This document shows, one piece after another, positions 27,653 through 42,891 of a stretch of DNA of 64,000 bases. The DNA comes from a virus. Lineage: Duplodnaviria; Caudoviricetes. The stretch lies in the IMG/VR virus record IMGVR_UViG_2974730439_000001, positions 1 through 64,000 of that record. The stretch is one strand, 5' to 3'. Numbering within the stretch: the first letter of the stretch is position 1; the number at the start of each line of letters is the position of its first letter. A model generated the notes under the pieces. The model saw nothing but the letters and a program-made list of their open reading frames with translations. It had not been told where the DNA came from and made no database searches. The position numbers and the translations under genes are program-made.

Positions 27653-28213
27653 TTAATGTTGTTTGTATTTCCAAATATATTTACGGGCAGTAGCCTTTGG
27701 ATTATTACATGCTCTCCACAAATCTTTCAGACAAATTCCTAATGAACGAGCAATTTCATTCATACTACACCACTCTTTTACCAATTCTCCATCTGCGCTA
27801 AACTATAGTATTGGTTTACTACGTTTTTTACTACTTCTATAATTTCCTGTTCCGTAGTTTTTGTTGTATTTTCTAGTGCACATTTCTAAATTAGATAAAC
27901 TATTATCTAGTTTGTCTTCATTTTTGTGATTTACTTCTAGATCATCAGAATAATTGTCAAAAAACGCTTTAGCAATTAATCTGTGAACTAAATGATTACT
28001 ATGTACTCCATCTTTACATAAAGTAATACACCAATATTTGGAACGTATGCTTTGATTCATTATTCTTTCTGGTATTACGTAAGAATACGTTCCTGGTCTA
28101 TAACCAGTTCTAATTACAGTAACTTCTCTGCATTTAGATTTAATTCTTCCGGAACTACTTACCTAATATAGATCTTCATAGCCTGGTATATCTTTCCAAA
28201 TTTCTCTAATCAT
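27653..28213 (-). CDS. NUMOD4-HNH homing endonuclease, 186 aa, two TAGs
   Basis: EIWKDIPGYEDLYQVSSSGRIKS (Q = TAG), VHRLIA, VNHKNEDKLDNSLSNLE. Confidence 0.9.
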
Positions 28214-28219
28214 ATTCTG

Positions 28220-30265
28220 TTAATTAAATGTATATACATCGTCATCGACTTGACTGAAGTTATCGTCATAACTCCAGCTACTATAAGTAAAGAGAGGGCC
28301 GTCGAATAATAATCTCTCTCTGTTAGTTTTCTTCTTCTCTTTTACAACTACATTATATAGTTGTTCACGATAGATCATTACCTGCATCAACGCCATCACA
28401 CGGTCAAAGTTACCTATATCATTATAACCTATAAGCTCTTCTAATAGCGGTTCTGATAATATATCGTGTAGGTTTTTATGCCCTGGAGATTTCTCATCAT
28501 TTAACCAATCTTTAATGAGTCCTTCACCCCATTGTTTAATTTGTTTATTCATGTGACAACCTTTCTTTCGTTGCACTTTAGAATTGCTGATGATATCAGA
28601 TATAATGTCTGGCTAATCAGCCAAAAGATAGTCACAATGCTTAGCAGTAAAGTATGGAAACAAACCTTTACGCTCATTTTCATACATAATTCTGCCATTG
28701 TAATAAACTGCGAGTTTACGTAAGTTTTCATAATATTCCTCTGCTGTAGCAGGCCTTCCTGTATACTCAGCTACTATTATATCATAGTAGTTTTCAAAAT
28801 TCTAAAATCTCTTATATACAAAAGTAGAACCTAATGAATTAGTACCAGATTGATCATGATCATAAGGGTCTACTCCAAGTATATATAAACCAATAGGAGC
28901 ATCCTTTACAGGATGTTCCCATATAACTATAGAACCAGTAGGATCATCCTCTTTGGATAGAGGATAATGAGTAATATCACCTTGTTTTTTTATTACCCAT
29001 TTAAGACTACCATCTGATTCCCATACTAAATCACCTATCTATTTATGATTTGATAATTTCTTATTTGTACGTATTTTAGCTAGTTGTTCTTGTAACTCTT
29101 TCTTCGGGAATATATTACCATTGAATTCTAGACATGCTTCAGCTGGAGTAATACAACGTTCTGCCACATAACGGTCTACTGCTACAGAACTAGTGGCATT
29201 CTCTATTACGTCTTTACGCTGTTGTAATACATATTCTAAAGCTTTATGTCTTATAGTATTACCATCATTATCCATATACATACGATTCCCCTATTCATCT
29301 CGTATGTCCATGTTTGTATACTGAGGTATGAAGAAACCACATTTAGTATCTCCTACATTCTCATCCCATATGTTATCGAGCTCTAAACAATTATAACCTT
29401 TAGGCTTATAAAACATGTCTTTAAGAGTAAAGAAGTTAGAATCTTCATCCCCACCAGTACCAAATGCTATCATAGTAGCAAATGCTCTACCGTCATTCTC
29501 TACAGAAGGTCTAGCAATTTGCCATGCTGCACCTAATTCTTTAAATGAACCAGCTTCTTCAAATAGAATAAGGTTAGCTTTTTTACCACGTACTACATCA
29601 GGATTGTCTTTCAAAGTAACCCCAATAATTTCAGATTTATAACCTACTTCTATTTGATTACCGTATTCATCCTTCATACTTACTGCAGCACGTTTACGTA
29701 ACTGAGTATTTACAGCTCTTTTCTTACCCCATGCAGTATGTTCATCTATAAAGTCTAAGTAGTCCCAAGCTTTAGTAAGGATACCATCATCTGTTAAATA
29801 TTGCTTATTTGAAGCATATACATATGATTTTGAGTTAGGTATAAGATAGTAATTACGACATAACATAGCTGCTCCTTTATAGGAGTAACCTTTACGTCTA
29901 GACTTAAGTACACATAAATGTTTACCCTATTTATGAGCTTCATTTACTGCATTAAAATAATAATAATCGTAGTCCCAAAAATCAGGAAATGTAACCAACT
30001 ATTCTGATACTACTTCCCCATTTACTATACTATTGACAGTACGATTAATAGGACAATAATTTAAATAAAAATAGTTATATCCACTAATGAAGTCACCATC
30101 ATCAGCTGTATAACCATTAATACAACGTTCCTTTTCCTCTGTCCAGAAACGCATATATTCTGCCGTACCTTTAGGGTGTGGGCAGTATTGACCTGTTCTA
30201 ATATATGTAAGAGCAGGCTATCTGAACTTATTACTATTTACTATCTTTTTATTAAAGTCTACCAT
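28220..30265 (-). CDS. terL: Terminase large subunit, 681 aa, TAG-recoded
   Basis: LKSRRKGYS (Walker A), ILFEEAG (Walker B), LGVDPYD and NFDRVMA nuclease motifs in one frame. Confidence 0.92.
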
Positions 30266-30533
30266 ATTGTATATTTAAAAGGGGCGCGTTTCACAACGAA
30301 CCCCTTCTATTGAGATAATATTTATTAACCTAAAATTCTCTTAATCATGAAAAATATATTGGGGAGATTTCTGTAGCTGTAACCTAGTTTCTTGAGCTGT
30401 GGTTTTATACGCCGTATGTTTAGTACTCCCCACCTGGGCTAATATTACCCCAGACTACCTGTTCACGATAACTACCTATCCAACAAGTTTCCTTCTGCTA
30501 TTATAGTTTCAAAGGACTGGTATTTTAAATTAG

Positions 30534-30833
30534 TAGTCCCTGTAGGTATCGATCCCACTCCTCCCGGGTTCATACTACACTTACTTTTACATAAGCCTTC
30601 TCAGTGAGAAGTTGTAGTCTGGACTATTTCATGACCATATTCTACTAGAACTTAGGCCTCTCCCGTATAGTCTCTACGCCATTTATCAGCAGATGCTGAA
30701 TTTAGTAAGCCATCGCCAAAGTAATATCGCTATTACGAGGTTTCTGTTTGTTAGAGAGATTTTTCAATACATATTTCTACGTAAAGCTCCTACCTAAAAG
30801 AGCCGGGCGCGCTAGCCAGTACGCAAAGGGACA
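30534..30833 (-). tRNA. Amber suppressor tRNA (anticodon CUA, probably Gln), interrupted by a group I intron; exons 30833-30799 and 30570-30534
   Basis: Joined exons give a cloverleaf: acceptor TGTCCCT/AGGGACT-A, D stem GCGT/GCGC, anticodon arm CCCGG-CTCTAAC-CCGGG, T arm GTGGG-ATCGATA-CCTAC. Confidence 0.88.
30571..30798 (-). mobile_element. Group I intron (IC3/Azoarcus-like), 228 nt, no ORF
   Basis: P1 GGCUCU/GGAGCU with U.G at the splice site, L2 GAAA, P3 UCUCUC/GGGAGA, P7 GAGACUA...AUAGUCC, P8 receptor CCUAAG/UAUGG, terminal G. Confidence 0.9.
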
Positions 30834-30901
30834 GTGCACGTGGATATTCTTACCCTCCACGTAAGGGCCCCTTAAGGGTTAAATTAATGATATCTATAAA
30901 T

Positions 30902-31054
30902 TTAAAACCAGCTCTTGATACGCTTAGCTATTCTTTTATACCAAGGTTTTACTTGCAATCTAGCTGCTTCACATTCAGCAATTGCTTCCTCAACAGTTTT
31001 GGTATCATCAGTTAAATCTACGATAATTGTAGGCATTTTTGTATTTTTATCCAT
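30902..31054 (-). CDS. 50-aa peptide with amphipathic C-terminus, upstream of the suppressor tRNA
   Basis: MDKNTKMP...KPWYKRIAKRIKSWF, typical AT-rich start context. Confidence 0.55.
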   Translation of the reverse strand: MDKNTKMPTIIVDLTDDTKTVEEAIAECEAARLQVKPWYKRIAKRIKSWF

Positions 31055-31075
31055 AATCTCAATTTTGTATTATTA

Positions 31076-31102
31076 AACGTTGTTGTTATTTTTTAGTGTT
31101 TA
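31076..31102 (-). promoter_or_regulatory. Putative ECF-type late promoter upstream of small ORF, suppressor tRNA and terL
   Basis: TAAACAC-N16-CGTTT; weaker match than the other five. Confidence 0.45.
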
Positions 31103-31109
31103 TCAAATG

Positions 31110-31655
31110 TTATACTCTAACATTTTGATTAGGAAGTTCAAATAGATTAATCTTAGCGTCACCTTTTACTTTACTAGTTTCAAGCTCACCAGACTTAACA
31201 GCTTTCTCTAAGTAATCTAGAGTAACGAATGTATCTTTTACTTTGGCGAATCCTGCATAATACTTCTCTATTTTCTTTTCATCAAGTTCTTCTAATAGAG
31301 AATCTTTATAGTATTTATTGAAGGTATCTAGCTTTAATCTAATGCTATCTAGCATATCTAAAGTACGAGTATGTTGTAACCTAATAAAGCTATCTTCTGC
31401 TTTTTGTTCATCTTCAGTAAGCTCATAATCTGTATTTCCTAAGAATTCTTCTTTTAGCTTACTTTCTATTTGATCATATGGAATACTCAGTACATAAGGA
31501 CTATCCCATTTATTCTTAAATACTATATAACTAAGTATTGCAGTAGCGTGTTGTTTATCAGCTTTATCTGATTCCCATATTTTCTTAAAAGCAGGTATAG
31601 CTAAAGCGTTTTCATGTATTACTACTTTTCCTCCTATTATATCAAATAGTTTCAT
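31110..31655 (-). CDS. Conserved crAss-like protein upstream of terL (small terminase candidate)
   Basis: 181-aa helical ORF; function inferred from position only. Confidence 0.5.
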   Translation of the reverse strand: MKLFDIIGGKVVIHENALAIPAFKKIWESDKADKQHATAILSYIVFKNKWDSPYVLSIPYDQIESKLKEEFLGNTDYELTEDEQKAEDSFIRLQHTRTLDMLDSIRLKLDTFNKYYKDSLLEELDEKKIEKYYAGFAKVKDTFVTLDYLEKAVKSGELETSKVKGDAKINLFELPNQNVRV

Positions 31656-31667
31656 AATTATTATATA

Positions 31668-32012
31668 TTAGTTACTTGATACGTTTGAGACACATTCACA
31701 CTTAGAGAAAGTGCTGCTTATTTTATGTTTTTTATCTTGCATCTTTGCAATATGATCTTTAATAGTTTTATCACTAATTACAGCATAAACAAAAGTTTTA
31801 TCATCAAGTTTATATGTTTTTGCTATTAAATCACCCTTAGATACTTTTACATTTTCAGTAGTTCCATCTTTTTTTGTGATACTGTATTCTCCATCTTCAG
31901 GAACAATCCATATATAATCGAAATAGAAACTATCTAAAACAGTTACCTCATTTGTATCCGGATTATAACCTATCATGCAACTACTATTATTGTCATTTAC
32001 GTATTTATTCAT
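31668..32012 (-). CDS. Hypothetical protein
   Basis: 114-aa ORF in gene run. Confidence 0.65.
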   Translation of the reverse strand: MNKYVNDNNSSCMIGYNPDTNEVTVLDSFYFDYIWIVPEDGEYSITKKDGTTENVKVSKGDLIAKTYKLDDKTFVYAVISDKTIKDHIAKMQDKKHKISSTFSKCECVSNVSSN

Positions 32013-32111
32013 AATTAATCTATTCTATAATCAGTATAATATTCTTTTTGTAATCTCGCTAATATTACTCTAGCTTGTTTCTCTGAACAATTAGGATTTG
32101 TATATTCAGGA

Positions 32112-32855
32112 TTATTCTGATACTTGTTTATCACTGTCTGATAATACGCTATCTCCTGTTCTAGACTTTCCTTTGTTATATTCATAAATAGTTTCTTCTA
32201 CTAAGTCTTTTAATCTATCTTTATAGGAACACAGTTTTGCTATAACCTCTTCATTAGAACCATATAAATTACGATCTGTAATTATTCCTTTAACTACATT
32301 TTTGTTATTATCTTCTATAATAGCTCCAGTTTCATCTTCGCTTAACCAGTAATTAAAGTTCGTTTTTTTAGCCAGCTCTTTAGATAGCTCTCTAATCGAA
32401 CGAGATATTTCTTTCTTTAAACCACTGATAGTGTCAAATTCAGATCTTCTATCTAACTCTTCTTTGGAAGAAAGTTGTATCTTATCGAGTATGTCATTAC
32501 AACTATTTATTTTTTCTTCAATACGCTCATCTAGAGCTTTAGATAAATCTTCAACAGTTGCTTTTCTAAAAGTGTGTTTACTTATCCACAGCATTGCTAT
32601 TGCATTCCAAGCAACTTGAGCTAAGTGATGGCAACCAGTATCTTTGTCAATAGCATTACCTTTTTCATACTCAAGTAAGTGTCTTAGCATGGCAGCTTTA
32701 TAGCGTTGGTAACCATTATCTAAGTTCTGCCAATTATTATCACCATACTTGATAGAACCGGCTGTGTATACTTTTACGATGTCTTCAATTTCTTCTAGGG
32801 GCAACAAATCCCATCTTAATTTCTTGTCTAAGAAATCATTCTTCTTTCCTTCCAT
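32112..32855 (-). CDS. dATP/dGTP diphosphohydrolase-domain protein (DUF5664-like)
   Basis: KLRWDLLP...GSIKYGDNNW...AAMLRHL...DTGCHHLAQVAWNA. Confidence 0.8.
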   Translation of the reverse strand: MEGKKNDFLDKKLRWDLLPLEEIEDIVKVYTAGSIKYGDNNWQNLDNGYQRYKAAMLRHLLEYEKGNAIDKDTGCHHLAQVAWNAIAMLWISKHTFRKATVEDLSKALDERIEEKINSCNDILDKIQLSSKEELDRRSEFDTISGLKKEISRSIRELSKELAKKTNFNYWLSEDETGAIIEDNNKNVVKGIITDRNLYGSNEEVIAKLCSYKDRLKDLVEETIYEYNKGKSRTGDSVLSDSDKQVSE

Positions 32856-33276
32856 CTTCTTTATTTCTTAAATAATCTATCATAAATTGACCTACTTTAC
32901 CTGCTATCCAACCTAGTAAATAAGCGTAAGGTTCGTTACCTTGATCATATCCTTGTCCTACTCCTCCTATTATATCCCATATTACATCAGTGGCATGAGT
33001 AGATTCATGAGCAGCTACTTCTATAGCTGTACCATCTAATTTATCTGGAGTTTCTATAAGTATGAGTACTCCTTTATCTCCCGTTCTTTTATCTCTTACT
33101 ATAAAGGTGACCCCATCTGCACTTGCTGGACTAATAGGAGAGCCATTATTCTCTTTATTCAGTAAATCTTTAATAGTAGGATAAAACAAGAACTTTCTCT
33201 TCATTTCTTCAAAACAATCTATGGTAGAAATATATATATCTACAGGATATATATCAAGGCAGTATTTTCTAATCAT
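32836..33276 (-). CDS. HExxH (AHESTH...EPYAYL) protein
   Basis: Common phage zincin-like motif. Confidence 0.65.
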   Translation of the reverse strand: MIRKYCLDIYPVDIYISTIDCFEEMKRKFLFYPTIKDLLNKENNGSPISPASADGVTFIVRDKRTGDKGVLILIETPDKLDGTAIEVAAHESTHATDVIWDIIGGVGQGYDQGNEPYAYLLGWIAGKVGQFMIDYLRNKEDGRKEE

Positions 33277-33529
33277 CTTTTATTACTTTATATATATTAG
33301 CAATAGCTCTATTACTAAGTAAGTACACATACAAAAATACTTCATCTGACAATCTATAAGTTGAATCAGGGGTAATGATTTCATTGCTACCTTCTTTAAT
33401 TTGTATCGTGCATTCATCTTTCTGACCTATTGGATAAGACATTTTGTAATATATCATGAGCTCTACTAATTCTGTTAGAATGTCATTTTGTGGTATCTTT
33501 GTTATCCGTATCTTCTTTCTTTCGCTCAT
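33269..33529 (-). CDS. Hypothetical protein
   Basis: 86-aa ORF overlapping neighbours. Confidence 0.6.
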   Translation of the reverse strand: MSERKKIRITKIPQNDILTELVELMIYYKMSYPIGQKDECTIQIKEGSNEIITPDSTYRLSDEVFLYVYLLSNRAIANIYKVIKDD

Positions 33530-33707
33530 ATACCTTCTTAATCTTGATTTTACCTAAGTAAGTGAATAGCATAGGTCTTTCATCACCTTCTGTTATTCTT
33601 CTATTAGCGAACATAAAAGGGTGATTACATATAACCTTTATTACCTAACTAGGAAGTTGATATTTATTACTTAGTTCAGAATATATACTCATTCCAGTTT
33701 TTTTCAT
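33483..33707 (-). CDS. HU/IHF-like small basic protein, one TAG
   Basis: IYSELSNKYQLPSQVIKVIC...MLFTYLGKIKIK when TAG 33645-33647 is read through. Confidence 0.6.
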
Positions 33708-34104
33708 TTGATAACTCTCTAATATTATAATATTTGCTATTCAAGAAAGCTTGTAAATCATTAGTATTATCTGAGAATGTGTTAGTTCTAATAATATTAA
33801 TTGTTGCAAATAGATCTTCAATTTTTATACCTTCTTCTGAACTTGTAGCAATATCACCATTAAATTCTAGAATCTTTTCTAATGTACTAATCTCTTTCTT
33901 ACTATAGTTCTTTTTAGGTTCAGCAATAATAACGTCTGTATTTTTACTAAACACATTTACTAAATCACACGAATCTTTAAAGATAACAAAATGATTATAA
34001 GGTAATACTTTCTTGCTTAGCTTAGCCCAAAATCTCTTAAACCAATTATACTTTTTACATAATAAGACACAACCTGGTTTAAGTGTTACATATTGTATAT
34101 TCAT
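33676..34104 (-). CDS. Hypothetical protein
   Basis: 142-aa ORF. Confidence 0.65.
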   Translation of the reverse strand: MNIQYVTLKPGCVLLCKKYNWFKRFWAKLSKKVLPYNHFVIFKDSCDLVNVFSKNTDVIIAEPKKNYSKKEISTLEKILEFNGDIATSSEEGIKIEDLFATINIIRTNTFSDNTNDLQAFLNSKYYNIRELSNEKNWNEYIF

Positions 34105-34105
34105 A

Positions 34106-34477
34106 TTATTCTTTCTCCAATCTAAGTACGATAGTTAGCTGAACTCTATCTCCTATTATTTCAGGTATTAATGCAGGATTAACCATCCATTCATCATCAG
34201 CTTTACCTTTTATTATCAGACCTTTATCTCTTAATTTCCCTATGTATCTACTTAAGTTATCACTAGTAATGCCTGTTGCAGCTTTTAGATAACGTCTGTT
34301 TTCGGTACTTATCACATTTTTGCTGTACCCAGGGAGCTTAGGAGTATTAATATCTATGTCAATTAATAAAACCATCAAGTCTTGCTCCCTAGTGGTCAGC
34401 TAAAGTACACCATCAAGTGATTTGAGGAATTCTCTGTAAAGATCTGTTTTTTTCACAGCCTTCACTAATTTATTCAT
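34106..34477 (-). CDS. Winged-helix DNA-binding protein, 123 aa, one TAG
   Basis: LTTREQDLM...NLSRYIGKLRDKGLI...WMVNP; start extended through TAG 34400-34402. Confidence 0.7.
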
Positions 34478-34877
34478 TGATAATTTCCTTTACCTTTTTA
34501 AGAATTTGATTCATATTGAAATATACTGTATCTGCTTCAACCTTAACGCAAGTAGGAATCTCTTGATTATTATAGGCTTCTACTAAAGCATCATGGTCTT
34601 TCTTATATTGAGCTTCTAGTGTATCTACTAAATCAGATAATGCACACAATTTATCAATTGCAGAAAGCTCTTCATTTTCATCTTCGATGACTAACAGATT
34701 ACCTGATTCTACAAACTCTTCTGCCGTTTCCTCATCCATACAAATATAACGTGAACACTTCTCACTATCATTTTCAGTTGTCATACTGAATTCATACAAA
34801 TTAGTGTCTTCATTATAAGTAAGCATATCACCTTTTTGTGCAGATGCAAATTCTTTAATTACTTTATAGTTCTTCAT
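34470..34877 (-). CDS. Acidic hypothetical protein
   Basis: 135-aa ORF. Confidence 0.7.
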   Translation of the reverse strand: MKNYKVIKEFASAQKGDMLTYNEDTNLYEFSMTTENDSEKCSRYICMDEETAEEFVESGNLLVIEDENEELSAIDKLCALSDLVDTLEAQYKKDHDALVEAYNNQEIPTCVKVEADTVYFNMNQILKKVKEIINE

Positions 34878-34920
34878 AATAATTATTATTTAGTTGTTTA
34901 ATAGTTGTTACATATACCTA

Positions 34921-34944
34921 AACGGTAAATGTTAAAATAGTATC
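34921..34944 (-). promoter_or_regulatory. Putative ECF-type late promoter GATAC-N15-CGTTT
   Basis: Shared motif; TTAACA-NN-TGTTAA inverted repeat just upstream. Confidence 0.45.
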
Positions 34945-34985
34945 TATTCTTTAACATTTGTTAACTTATATTTAAGTAATGACAT

Positions 34986-35016
34986 GAAAAAAGGCTAGAT
35001 CCGCAGACCTAGCCCC
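34986..35016 (-). terminator. Intrinsic terminator after GroES-like gene
   Basis: GGGGCTAGGTC-TGCG-GATCTAGCC followed by U6. Confidence 0.8.
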
Positions 35017-35043
35017 ACAACAACTATTAATACGCATTAATAT

Positions 35044-35397
35044 TTAGTCTTTTCTTGCTATAATATCATAAGGTTTAACTAACTGACTATCCTTAAATAA
35101 GTCAAAGTCTTTAGCAAACTTCTTATTAAATACTATTGTATCTCCTACTTTAAAGTCTGTTATATTTAGACTTTCTGGAATAGCAAGTACAATTCCTAAT
35201 CTCCACTCTGACTCTACTTCTTTTACTTCAGTCTTAGTCTCAAACTTCTCATAACCATCAACATCTTTTTCACCTGTACCAACTGCTTCGGTTATTTCTT
35301 TCTTTAGCTTAATAGGTTCAAGAGGTTTAACTAACACATCTTTCAGAGGAGTATAACCAATTCCATTAATTACTGTTTCTAGTACTTTATCTTCCAT
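35044..35397 (-). CDS. GroES-like co-chaperonin
   Basis: YTPLKDVLVKP...GIVLAI...FKVGDTIVF...DIIA pattern. Confidence 0.7.
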   Translation of the reverse strand: MEDKVLETVINGIGYTPLKDVLVKPLEPIKLKKEITEAVGTGEKDVDGYEKFETKTEVKEVESEWRLGIVLAIPESLNITDFKVGDTIVFNKKFAKDFDLFKDSQLVKPYDIIARKD

Positions 35398-35419
35398 AAT
35401 ATTCTTATTTATATTCTAT

Positions 35420-35444
35420 AACGTATTATTTGTTGTTTTGTTTC
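35420..35444 (-). promoter_or_regulatory. Putative ECF-type late promoter GAAAC-N16-CGTTA
   Basis: Best match to ECF consensus; directly upstream of the GroES-like gene. Confidence 0.6.
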
Positions 35445-35590
35445 TTTAATCTCAATATATTTCCGCCATTAGAACAGCAGTATCTCCTAGCTAAAGTAGG
35501 ACAATTTTTATCTAAGTAATAGCAACCATCACAACTACCTATAGGATTAGGCTCTACTATAAACTATTTGTTATCTATTGTTACTGGCAT
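35426..35590 (-). CDS. Small Cys-rich protein, 54 aa, one TAG; paralogue of 35846-36046
   Basis: VE....GSCDGCYY...CP......CC..GGNILR versus VE....GMCQGCDL...CP.....LC..GFILK. Confidence 0.6.
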
Positions 35591-35852
35591 TCTGTTCTTT
35601 ACTATCTTCGCTAATTCCTGGTCGTTCAAAGTCATTATCTTCAATTTTGTATATCCATATAAAGTAGTCTACTATATACTTAGCCATTTCACTAGTTTCA
35701 CCATCTTCTATGTAGCTATTCACAACCGCATTATAAGTAGACTCATCAAAAGATAAGCTATTATTATCTATAATAGCTCCGTTATCTAATAGCTTTTGAT
35801 TTATTCTTTCTAATCCCTTTATAGAAGGATTATATTCTACAATATTTAACAT
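35571..35852 (-). CDS. Hypothetical protein
   Basis: 93-aa ORF. Confidence 0.6.
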   Translation of the reverse strand: MLNIVEYNPSIKGLERINQKLLDNGAIIDNNSLSFDESTYNAVVNSYIEDGETSEMAKYIVDYFIWIYKIEDNDFERPGISEDSKEQNASNNR

Positions 35853-36046
35853 TCTTTTTTACATTTTTTAAGTATAAATCCCTGAGTACATAAGGAAGTA
35901 ATTCTAGAAGGGCAATAGCAATTGTATAGATCACATCCTTGACACATACCTTTTACTTCATTCTCTACTAAAGTATAAGGTTTATTACCAAAATATACTT
36001 TCTTACCTAAGTAAGCTACTTCTTTAATTTGTTGCTGTTTCTTCAT
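35846..36046 (-). CDS. Small Cys-rich protein
   Basis: 66-aa ORF with CxxC motifs. Confidence 0.65.
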   Translation of the reverse strand: MKKQQQIKEVAYLGKKVYFGNKPYTLVENEVKGMCQGCDLYNCYCPSRITSLCTQGFILKKCKKEC

Positions 36047-36120
36047 AATATAAATATCTAAAGTAGGAGACTATAATCAGTCTATACTGTCTTAGACTGT
36101 CTTTAACTGTTATAGACAGT

Positions 36121-36146
36121 AACGTATAAACTCTTATAAAAGTTTC
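36121..36146 (-). promoter_or_regulatory. Putative ECF-type late promoter GAAAC-N17-CGTTA
   Basis: Shared motif; TTAACA-NN-TGTTAA upstream. Confidence 0.55.
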
Positions 36147-36212
36147 TTTTATGATAAACTTTTTAACATTTGTTAAGAACAATTATAGCTATTTAATAGC
36201 TAATTTTTAACA

Positions 36213-37073
36213 TTATTTATGAATTAATTTATATAATTCATCGGCTAACTTCTTAGCATCTGGATGAGCTGCACCACTGCAACGTAATTCAAAGAAATGT
36301 TCCCAATCACTTTCAAAGCCTGTCATTACTAATTCTGTCTTAGTTGCATTAGGTAGTACTCCACGAGCTTCTTGAGGCTTCAAACCTTTATTTATTAGTA
36401 ATCTATATTGCATTCCTGCATTGTTCAAACACCATAAAAAGTTATCTGCTATGCCATTATCTGAAGGCAATTGAATCTTCATATTATCAATATCACACCA
36501 ATCACCATCCCAATATGTGTAATCACCAGTAGGTATATTTAACCAAGTAGGTTTAATAAAAGTAAGTTCATTATTGAATTTATCCTTACTGTAGTTACAA
36601 TATCTTTGAGACTCCTGTGCAAAGCTGAATACTCTGTGTCTAACAAACTCATGACTTACTCCTCTATCACATATAAATTTAGCTGTAATACGCTTTTCAT
36701 GATGCTCTGTAGGTTCTACTTGGTATTGTAAATCGTCTAATCTATTATTCTCTACTATTACTCGTAGATTAGTTGTCACATATATTGAATTTCCATGTTT
36801 ACGAACTCTAGTATATTTCTTGTGATTACCATCTGACCAATATAGTCTAGCTGGTGGAAGATGTCCGTCTTCTGTTTTATCTATCTTTAAATATATGGTA
36901 CCATGCTCTAACATAGCTCCATGACCAAGCTTAATCATACGATCTACAAACTCTTTAGCACTGTTCTCTGTTATCTTATCTTCAGACTTATAACAAGTTC
37001 TACCTGCTAATTCTATCATCTTGTAAGGGTCTTTCTCCTCAATAATCTGTACACTGGATTCTATTAATTTCAT
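36213..37073 (-). CDS. thyX: Flavin-dependent thymidylate synthase
   Basis: RHRVFSFAQESQRY signature, GHGAMLEH, QEARGVLP. Confidence 0.95.
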   Translation of the reverse strand: MKLIESSVQIIEEKDPYKMIELAGRTCYKSEDKITENSAKEFVDRMIKLGHGAMLEHGTIYLKIDKTEDGHLPPARLYWSDGNHKKYTRVRKHGNSIYVTTNLRVIVENNRLDDLQYQVEPTEHHEKRITAKFICDRGVSHEFVRHRVFSFAQESQRYCNYSKDKFNNELTFIKPTWLNIPTGDYTYWDGDWCDIDNMKIQLPSDNGIADNFLWCLNNAGMQYRLLINKGLKPQEARGVLPNATKTELVMTGFESDWEHFFELRCSGAAHPDAKKLADELYKLIHK

Positions 37074-38586: not shown

Positions 38587-38957
38587 AAACAAACAGAGGA
38601 GTAGAAAACTGTGAACTACTCCGTCTTTAAGGTGAGAATCCTTAACAATCCTGTGGGGCTTATATCTATCAAAAGAACTTACAGCAGCTTTTATATTAGC
38701 TTAGCTGGACTTTATGATAGTATTAGTGCAGACGTTAAAATCAGGAACAACTATATTAGATGGCAATATTACCTTCTTCCAGTCGCAAATGTCATATAGT
38801 TTAATATAGCCAAGTTTGTTTCGTCCTTAGATTTACAGTATCTACCATTTGTTTATTTAATCATTGTTCGTTCTTAATTATACAGATTGATTAATTAAGA
38901 ATAACAGTAAGCGTACTGTTGTCAGTATATTTATATGTGAATATAGATATACTGATT

Positions 38958-40727: not shown

Positions 40728-41129
40728 AACCAAACCTTCTTTCTGTTTTAAATGAACATTAGAGTCTAGTATACTCAGTCTGTGAAGATAGAGTATACGT
40801 CCTCAGAAAATGACAAGCATGTGGGGCATAGTAAATACTATAATGGCAGATTGAATTAGTAAGGCATACGTATGCATATGTAGAACAAACCATTTGATTA
40901 AATGTATTTATGATTGTGCGAGACGTTAAAATCATGTACTCCAATAAGATTTAGTTTGACAGCTATTTCTGCTTATGAGTTAAAACTATAGTGAGAGTCA
41001 TAGCGTAAGTAACGATTGTAGTCGTTTATCTTTGTCTTATAACAAATGCTATAAACTAAGAGTTGGCACTAACTTAATTAAATCCTGAGTGTCCAGGCGT
41101 CATTATTAATCAATTTAAACGTTTAAATT

Positions 41130-42337: not shown

Positions 42338-42555
42338 CCCTAAACAAGTTAGTATGGTGCAGTCAACCCAAAACTACTATTATCAACCAGATCCCTAATG
42401 GAAGCTTAGTAACAACTAAGCTACTAAGCAAGAGTACAATGGACTATACAACGGTCAACCAGTATCTAATATTGGTCTAAGATGAAGGAAAAGGGTTGCC
42501 TATGAATAAGAGATACGAATAAGTAGGATAGTAGTTTTTTAAAGAAATTAAAGAA

Positions 42556-42810
42556 ATTGACTGTTAGGTCTATTGAATCATCGTAAGACTTCCGTTCGAG
42601 TCGGAAATGCTCCACTAAATTAAAACAAGGAAGTTATTAGGTTTCTTAGCCGTTAGGTTGCAAGTCCTATAAAAAAGAAACCCTTATCAATGGGGCATAC
42701 AGGTTTTGATTGCGATAGTGAAGGTAGAATAGGTCAATAAGCAGATAACTGGCAATACAAGTTATATTATGAACTATAGCCGTATTGCGGCGTAAGTTCA
42801 AACGGCTAAG
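42556..42810 (+). ncRNA. ssrA: Circularly permuted (two-piece) tmRNA: acceptor piece about 42556-42614, intervening segment, coding piece from 42692; tag GNTSYIMNYSRIAA
   Basis: T arm TTCCG-TTCGAGT-CGGAA then ATGCTCC-A precedes GGGGCAT (G3.U70); helix-2 pairings between pieces; ATAACT-GGC resume context; ORF ends GCG GCG TAA. Confidence 0.88.
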
Positions 42811-42828
42811 CTAATGTCGTAGAAAGCT

Positions 42829-42891
42829 GGAGCATATCAGGCTAGATCAGACGTAAGGGCTGTGAAGGGTTCGATTCCCTTCAATGCTACA
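42829..42891 (+). ncRNA. tRNA/tmRNA-like remnant with T arm, downstream of the tmRNA coding piece
   Basis: GGAGCAT...GAAGGG-TTCGATT-CCCTTC-AATGCTACA; no anticodon arm. Confidence 0.45.

Follow-up and report, generated by a model that had tools for sequence, protein, structure and literature searches.

It is very likely that the amber suppressor tRNA of the crAss-like gut phage analysed here, most likely a tRNA-Gln, is split between positions 35 and 36 by an ORF-less IC3 group I intron of Bacteroidales lineage, carried as a tolerated mobile passenger. The precursor, interrupted at this point, would lack a CUA anticodon. Self-splicing, started by guanosine at the U.G pair of P1 and completed by ligation after the omega-G, would give a 72-nt tRNA with the loop CU-CUA-AC, and the spliced tRNA would decode the approximately 290 in-frame TAG codons of the late arm. 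We propose that the intron moved from the tRNA-Leu(UAA) IC3 lineage of the Bacteroidales, the host clade, into the phage tRNA(CUA), whose target loop CUCU/AA (the slash marks the insertion site) resembles the Leu site CUU/AAAA, and that the internal guide was re-tuned to the new exon.

The window (the whole stretch of DNA that was analysed, 64,000 nt, positions 1 to 64,000 of the IMG/VR virus record IMGVR_UViG_2974730439_000001) belongs to a 99,848-bp circular genome that has 32.6% GC and a terminal repeat of 55 bp. Positions 30833-30534 of the minus strand read as a 72-nt tRNA cut by 228 nt into a 5' half ending CCCGG-CUCU (30799) and a 3' half beginning AAC-CCGGG (30570), exactly as described in the initial annotation. 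The exons were joined by the U(-1)/omega-G rule, with the 5' site placed after the U of the P1 U.G wobble (30799) and the 3' site after the terminal G (30571). ARAGORN folded the joined exons into a single cloverleaf tRNA with a 7-nt anticodon loop C-U-CUA-A-C, including U33, the anticodon CUA and a purine at position 37. The 3' exon has the T loop AUCGAUA, the discriminator A73 and no encoded CCA, and the 1-72 pair is a U.U mismatch; the T loop (A54) and U1.U72 are atypical of tRNAs. The exons are identical in the window and in the related loci L016 and L034. The locus probably encodes a real intron-split amber suppressor tRNA, with its function predicted from this anatomy.

The expectation that standard tRNA finders would miss the gene was borne out: neither ARAGORN in the default mode nor the Rfam tRNA model called anything at the locus, and the tRNAs that they called in the window were three, Leu-UAA twice and Arg-UCU. 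ARAGORN detected no second CUA tRNA anywhere in the 99.8-kb circular genome. In the intron mode, ARAGORN on the unspliced DNA read the gene as Ser(CGA) and placed an intron of 228 nt at 34/35, both cuts being one base off the sites given above.

Four RNA-library runs (X1, X2, X4 and X8), among the public runs holding the locus, were compared with positions 30300-31100. In a 60-nt contig of X2 (depth 23.5), 30570 is followed directly by 30799 and exactly 228 nt are left out, with zero positional ambiguity and zero mismatches, so the joint GGCTCT/AACCCG that was to be looked for in transcriptome data was found in X2, a library that may hold DNA; no joint was found in X1, X4 and X8. Contigs of X4 and X8 diverge from the window at the tRNA edges and run into a cassette of the type found in crAssphage cr53_1. 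X2 is a random-PCR library in which DNA is possible and coverage is maybe uneven, and its contigs show no strand. The intron-bearing unitig of X2 (30541-30828) has a depth of 151.5 and the flanking contigs have depths of 21.4 and 38.2; an intron path so much deeper than its flanks is unlike a pure DNA mixture, and an intronless DNA allele in the X2 sample may be the alternative source of the joined contig. Such an allele was not found in IMG/VR with the 23-mer junction, nor in the phage database by blastn with the 72-nt joined tRNA, and 11 metagenome-contig matches to the 19-mer junction were rejected as unrelated sequences. Whether the X2 contig is RNA or intronless DNA, it confirms the exon junction.

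The joint in X2 corresponds to the predicted CUCU/AAC and not to the cut of the ARAGORN intron mode, and together with ARAGORN on the joined exons it agrees with the earlier claim that the anticodon CUA is created at a junction between U35 and A36. Splice sites other than these are extremely improbable. The 34/35 call is the one result in their favour, and the cut that it makes follows C and ends in U, breaking both the U(-1).G and the omega-G rules, while the 30570/30799 joint of X2 is unambiguous. The same one-base offset was repeated by ARAGORN in the split CUA tRNAs of Lak-B1, L057, L058 and L131. The Ser(CGA) identity is ruled out by the splice-site rules and the X2 joint.

Table 1. Features of the split tRNA(CUA) locus, its intron and its immediate surroundings (window coordinates)
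Feature	Position	Strand	Evidence and remarks
terL, 681 aa, 7 in-frame TAG; opens the recoded late arm	28220..30265	-	PHROG 6681, E 1.4e-157
tRNA(CUA) 3' exon, 37 nt: A36-C38, anticodon stem, 4-nt variable region, T arm, acceptor	30534..30570	-	ARAGORN on joined exons
Group I intron, 228 nt, ORF-less, tRNA-Leu(UAA)/IC3 lineage, omega-G at 30571	30571..30798	-	Rfam Intron_gpI, covariation, own family HMM (E 1.3e-55), RNA-library contig skip
P9.0 ACUAC/GUAGU enclosing hairpins P9a and P9b	30574..30618	-	P9a and P9b covary (helices 14-16)
P7 (30674-30667 with 30627-30621) enclosing P3' and P8 (30658-30633)	30621..30674	-	P7 invariant 19/19; P8 double changes
P6/P6a region: GCU/GGC or CU/GG (two possible P6 registers), then hairpin UCAGC/GCUGA	30678..30710	-	Alignment helices 8 and 9
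P4-P5 domain: P4 as C-G and A-U (30746/30711, 30745/30712), P5 CC/GG, P5a 6 bp with GCGA loop	30711..30746	-	P4 pair covaries
P3 5' strand, partner 30664-30659	30754..30759	-	Double changes in 5/6 pairs (UA/CG/GC)
P2, 6 bp, GAAA tetraloop (30777-30774)	30768..30783	-	Double changes in all 6 pairs
P1: exon GGCUCU (30804-30799) / internal guide GGAGCU (30790-30785), 8-nt L1	30785..30804	-	6 bp with U(-1).G
tRNA(CUA) 5' exon, 35 nt: acceptor, D arm, anticodon stem, loop C32-U35	30799..30833	-	ARAGORN on joined exons; end set by U(-1).G in P1 and joined contig
Conserved hairpin ACGUGGA-11 nt-UCCACGU, 4 nt upstream of the tRNA	30838..30862	-	Precedes the tRNA cassette in cr53_1, L008, L015, L016, L053, L056 and L059

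The insert is a group I intron by its helices and their covariation, and autocatalysis is predicted from this structure. In a permissive local search of 801 nt, the Rfam model RF00028 (Intron_gpI) aligned along its full length with 30808-30605, with the same P1 register as in the first reading (21.3 bits, E 0.005); the covariance-model check proposed earlier thus found the intron, at a score below the gathering threshold of 50 bits, at which there is no match at the locus. In Williams 2020 (bioRxiv 10.1101/2020.01.27.920355), the Rfam seed is described as being without bacterial introns, and the cut-off applied there was 18-20 bits. Alignment A1, consisting of 19 distinct intron members, was used for covariation analysis, with the P3/P7 pseudoknot included in the structure that was counted. 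On A1, 87% of the cells pair, versus 72% in shuffled alignments and about 40% with slid partners; double-sided changes were found in 45 of the 68 pairs among the 19 relatives. The covariation score was 0.404 versus 0.160 for the shuffles (0 of 500 as high), and the slid controls reached at most 0.107. Double changes support P2, P3, P5a, P8, P9a and P9b, and P7, formed by GACUAU/AUAGUC with a bulged A, is invariant. The wobble at the 5' splice site lies in a 6-bp P1, and the omega position is G in 17 of the 19 relatives and A in L008 and L015. The internal guide tracks the exon, GGAG occurring with the exon end CUCU (CUA tRNAs) and GAGU with ACUU (Leu(UAA)).

The compact Azoarcus pre-tRNA-Ile(CAU) IC3 intron has a regular P4 of 7 bp, and its P5 carries a second receptor. 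Compared with its general description, the phage intron is alike in compact size, the GAAA L2, the 11-nt receptor in P8 (CCUAAG, 30656-30651, with UAUGG, 30639-30635) and the AGAGACUA...AUAGUCC core, and the group I anatomy that had been read from the sequence (P1, GAAA L2, P3, P7, the P8 receptor and the terminal G) is supported. It differs in having two Watson-Crick pairs in P4 and GCGA in L5a, versus the regular 7-bp P4 and the P5 receptor of Azoarcus.

A regular P4 stacked on P6 was not found: P4 is limited to two Watson-Crick pairs, which lie one position out of register, and in the register homologous to the canonical members it pairs at 3-4 of 7 positions. RNAalifold likewise gave two P4 pairs in the shifted register, one of which covaries in the phages (AU 9, CG 5, GC 3). 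The same P4 motif, CAAAC-N-G ... N'-GGCU, was detected in at least 52 of 80 intron copies on bacterial contigs. Almost all of these copies sit in tRNA-Leu(UAA) genes of Bacteroidales, and there the covariation of the P4 pair is perfect (A-T 34, G-C 18). Judged by these alignments, the odd P4 is a conserved lineage trait, because it is common to chromosomal Bacteroidales tRNA-Leu introns with covariation, and decay of the phage intron is ruled out as its cause by the same copies. An alternative pairing of CUUAC, in the region of the P4 3' strand, with GUAAG of P9b was also ruled out, since P9b covaries internally and not with P4.

These data bear on the suggestion that the gene is dead, in which case splicing would have been lost through the weak P4, the split tRNA would be a relic, and TAG would be read by a host suppressor or an undetected one. 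We consider this very unlikely. The non-canonical P4, the low Rfam score and the A at the omega position of L008 and L015 would fit such a loss, but the catalytic core is invariant, the helices covary, and the irregular P4 is shared with the covarying bacterial copies. The exact joined form is present in library X2, there is no other CUA tRNA in the genome despite its load of in-frame TAGs, and the exons are unchanged across the window, L016 and L034.

To place the intron among its relatives, we used an exact 18-mer across P7/P9.0, which detected 37 IMG/VR loci. Among the 39 sequences with the 18-mer (the 37 loci, the window and Lak-B1), 16 are CUA tRNAs split between U35 and A36; the tRNAs resolved among the remaining sequences comprise Leu(UAA), Lys(UUU) and Ile(UAU), in each of which the intron follows U34. 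The 18-mer also occurs in 84 stretches of bacterial genome contigs (about 80 contigs), overwhelmingly Bacteroidales, where the tRNA, if resolved, is Leu(UAA) in approximately 61 of 63 copies and never CUA. In a FastTree phylogeny of about 175 core columns, the finer branching of which is weakly supported, seven Leu introns of Bacteroidales join the clade of the window (support 0.86, with a core identity of 82% at best), and the CUA intron of L037, which has a canonical P4, lies in another clade (support 0.999). Because the L037 intron lies in a separate clade, the tree would mean at least two independent moves of the intron into CUA tRNAs.

The likeness to the tRNA-Leu(UAA) IC3 intron includes the exact 18-mer, approximately 82% core identity, the P3-P9 layout, the small size and the lack of an ORF, as well as insertion after a U in the anticodon loop, the U.G in P1 and the omega-G. 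The differences are that the present intron is phage-borne, lies in a CUA suppressor, is inserted after position 35 and not 34, and has the guide GGAG and not GAGU. The tRNA-Leu(UAA) group I intron, known from cyanobacteria and plastids, is the class 'Leu.3Ug' of Williams 2020 (bioRxiv 10.1101/2020.01.27.920355), in which the group-I-split bacterial tRNA classes were extended to 21; the Bacteroidales tRNA-Leu(UAA) IC3 intron was found in the present analysis. By sequence comparison, the locus adds a new host and a new insertion site to this known kind of intron. It documents a host-clade tRNA-Leu intron that appears to have moved into phage tRNAs with its guide re-tuned, and the altered genetic code of the phage would thereby be made dependent on a ribozyme reaction.

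The TAG codon is read through in the late arm, where approximately 290 in-frame TAGs were counted in ORFs of at least 150 aa (minus strand, 30265 to 2502, then 99427 to 65481), including 12 in the portal gene and 49 and 80 in the genes of two giant virion proteins. The minus-strand ORFs of at least 150 aa upstream (31110-37073) have zero TAGs and the plus-strand ORFs have 0-2 each. The TAG-bearing ORFs start at 30265 and those at 31110-37073 are without TAG, which puts the split tRNA exactly on the boundary between the two codes, and this ORF/TAG map agrees with the earlier placement of the tRNA directly upstream of terL at the edge of the recoded arm.

In an alignment of 79 TerL relatives, glutamine is the commonest partner of TAG, and the three conserved TAG columns of the phage's own TerL alternate with Q only (45/45, 6/6 and 42/42), in line with the TAG=Gln assignment published for crAss-like phages. 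We infer from this TAG/Q alternation that the tRNA most likely carries glutamine. The 1-72 mismatch described earlier as Gln-like is present (U.U, with A73), but it does not serve as a test of Gln identity. The D arm of the split tRNA differs from that of the cr53_1 cassette, which is labelled tRNA-Gln in its record.

The hairpin at 30838-30862 precedes every cassette type in the relatives, with one compensatory change in L008, and may be a candidate processing or regulatory signal. An ORF of about 50 aa (30902-31053, minus strand), ending in KSWF and a stop, terminates just before this hairpin, and its counterparts in L016 and L034 end in SWF and a stop. A free-standing HNH endonuclease ORF with 2 in-frame TAGs (27653-28213, minus strand; PHROG 59, E 1.9e-39) lies between terL and portal. 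A sigma-70 scan of 30200-31200 gave 9 promoter-like matches versus a shuffle mean of 3.2, none of them tied to the tRNA; a scan of the same region detected no terminator-like site, and the strict motif GAAAC-N16/17-CGT was absent at 31076-31102. A Clostridiales-3 match at 30835-31000 (19.9 bits versus 103.4) was taken as chance.

The split gene has flanks with 97.5% identity to those of crAssphage cr53_1 (Suoliviridae, Blohavirus; NC_055889), and the two phages have in common the slot order hairpin-tRNA-terL, the loop CUCUAAC, U1.U72 and A73. In cr53_1 the CUA tRNA is intronless and has another tRNA body, representing a different cassette. Phages of the crAss-like group with TAG=Gln and an intronless suppressor tRNA(CUA) were described previously (Yutin et al. 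2021, PMC7886860; Borges et al., 10.1101/2021.08.26.457843). Among 80 IMG/VR loci of relatives with TerL 72-99% identical, approximately 67 have an intronless CUA tRNA upstream of terL. The window's tRNA cassette recurs in L016 and L034 only. In three relatives, L057 (1084-2160), L058 (1004-2078) and L131 (984-2058), with TerL up to 99% identical, U35 and A36 of a cr53_1-type CUA tRNA are separated by an unrelated intron of 1002 nt, in which a P7-like AGACUAAA/AAUAGUC core and an HNH-type ORF were read by eye. The family HMM did not detect the window's intron in the 80 TerL-relative loci; because the same HMM finds the window at E 1.3e-55, the relatives are taken to be truly without it. The distribution is thus sporadic, and on this comparison the pre-terL slot is a hotspot of cassette and intron turnover.

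The initial annotation had suggested that the code switch would be gated by splicing, which could serve as a timer for late genes. In the form considered here, the intron would have been selected because slow or conditional splicing delays or throttles the suppressor and so times translation of the TAG-bearing late genes. This we regard as unlikely. The split gene is the sole suppressor of the genome and lies exactly at the early/late code boundary, CUA tRNAs make up 16 of the 39 phage-borne family members versus 0 of about 63 bacterial ones, in X2 the intron path has about 6 times the depth of the joined one, and the weak P4 could slow folding. However, the recoded late arm works without an intron in most relatives, since about 67 of 80 carry a CUA tRNA without an intron at this site, which in three others is occupied by the different HNH-ORF intron; for these reasons the timer idea is unsupported. 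The same intron family also occurs in ordinary sense tRNAs, namely phage Leu(UAA), Lys(UUU) and Ile(UAU) and Bacteroidales Leu(UAA), the weak P4 is common to the chromosomal introns, and contig depths cannot measure kinetics. A related reading, that the intron is not neutral, is also improbable: a folding-limited ribozyme step, due to the weak P4 and maybe requiring a chaperone or high Mg2+/GTP, would delay or dose the suppressor and help to set the switch from the standard code to TAG=Gln, and selection, in addition to target similarity, would then account for the excess of the family in suppressor tRNAs. The tolerated mobile passenger is the reading that we retain.

Other variants were observed at the slot. 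The crAss-like contigs L008 (773-1004, plus strand) and L015 (8919-9151, minus strand) have a related intron between U35 and A36 of another CUA tRNA in the pre-terL slot, with A in place of G at the omega position and a C.C mismatch in P1; these introns may splice non-canonically or be inactive. L053 (approximately 1575-1690) and L054 have a non-canonical CUA tRNA-like gene after the hairpin, with the anticodon arm GAAAU-CUCUAAA-AUUUC and aberrant D and T arms; it was missed by ARAGORN and Rfam, and an ORF follows it. In L085 and L086 the TerL match begins at residue 128, and the translation of the upstream stretch resembles an intein or a homing-endonuclease insertion in terL. An element of about 104 nt upstream of terL adjoins the CUA slot in a subgroup of relatives (L089, L100, L101, L106, L131 and others); ARAGORN labelled it 'tRNA-Val(gac)', interrupted by an intron of 13-16 nt, and the Rfam tRNA model scored it at 35-36 bits.

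Homologous split genes were found in the Lak megaphages. Lak-B1, B3, B6 and B9 have a 245-nt homologue (73.7% identity) between U35 and A36 of a CUA tRNA, located in Lak-B1 at L002:267-584 (MK250020.1, approximately 412033-412350). Because the 29 intronless tRNAs that ARAGORN found in Lak-B1 include no CUA, the split gene is by this sequence survey its sole amber suppressor; the intronless Lak junction was not detected in Lak-B1, B2 or C1. 'Enigmatic' introns, unclassified, were reported in Lak Tyr, Phe, Gly and Thr tRNAs by eukaryotic-mode tRNAscan (Devoto et al. 2019, PMC6784885); these are phage tRNA introns, as here, in tRNAs other than CUA, and neither a split CUA tRNA nor a group I assignment was found in that paper. 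A TAG suppressor was reported in 38 of 51 Lak genomes (Crisci 2021, PMC8346664).

Recoded phages without a detectable suppressor have been discussed (Yutin 2021, PMC7886860; a 2026 Crassvirales preprint, 10.64898/2026.08.21.746148), and the 2014-2026 papers on TAG-recoded phages of this kind invoke host suppressors or mechanisms not yet known. The idea that split genes could explain such 'missing' suppressors holds for Lak-B1, a published TAG=Q megaphage whose only CUA tRNA is the homologous split one. One concrete cause is thus that the suppressor is present with its anticodon split by a group I intron, so that finders in the bacterial mode skip the gene and the intron mode mislabels it Ser(CGA). 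A published description of an intron-split suppressor tRNA was not found in full-text literature searches, the class list of Williams 2020 lying outside their reach. The main practical weight is on the annotation of recoded phages: screening them for group I introns between tRNA halves should bring many 'missing' suppressors to light, to the benefit of code prediction and gene calling.

Further structured RNAs were detected on the plus strand of the window. Two Hatchet ribozymes lie in the early non-coding region (38623-38746 and 40799-40937; 103.5 and 69.6 bits, gathering score 51). A RAGATH-9 RNA (42359-42538, 158.5 bits, E 3.9e-29) abuts the tmRNA gene, a permuted, two-piece tmRNA (42525-42886) for which ARAGORN predicted the tag GNTSYIMNYSRIAA followed by a stop.
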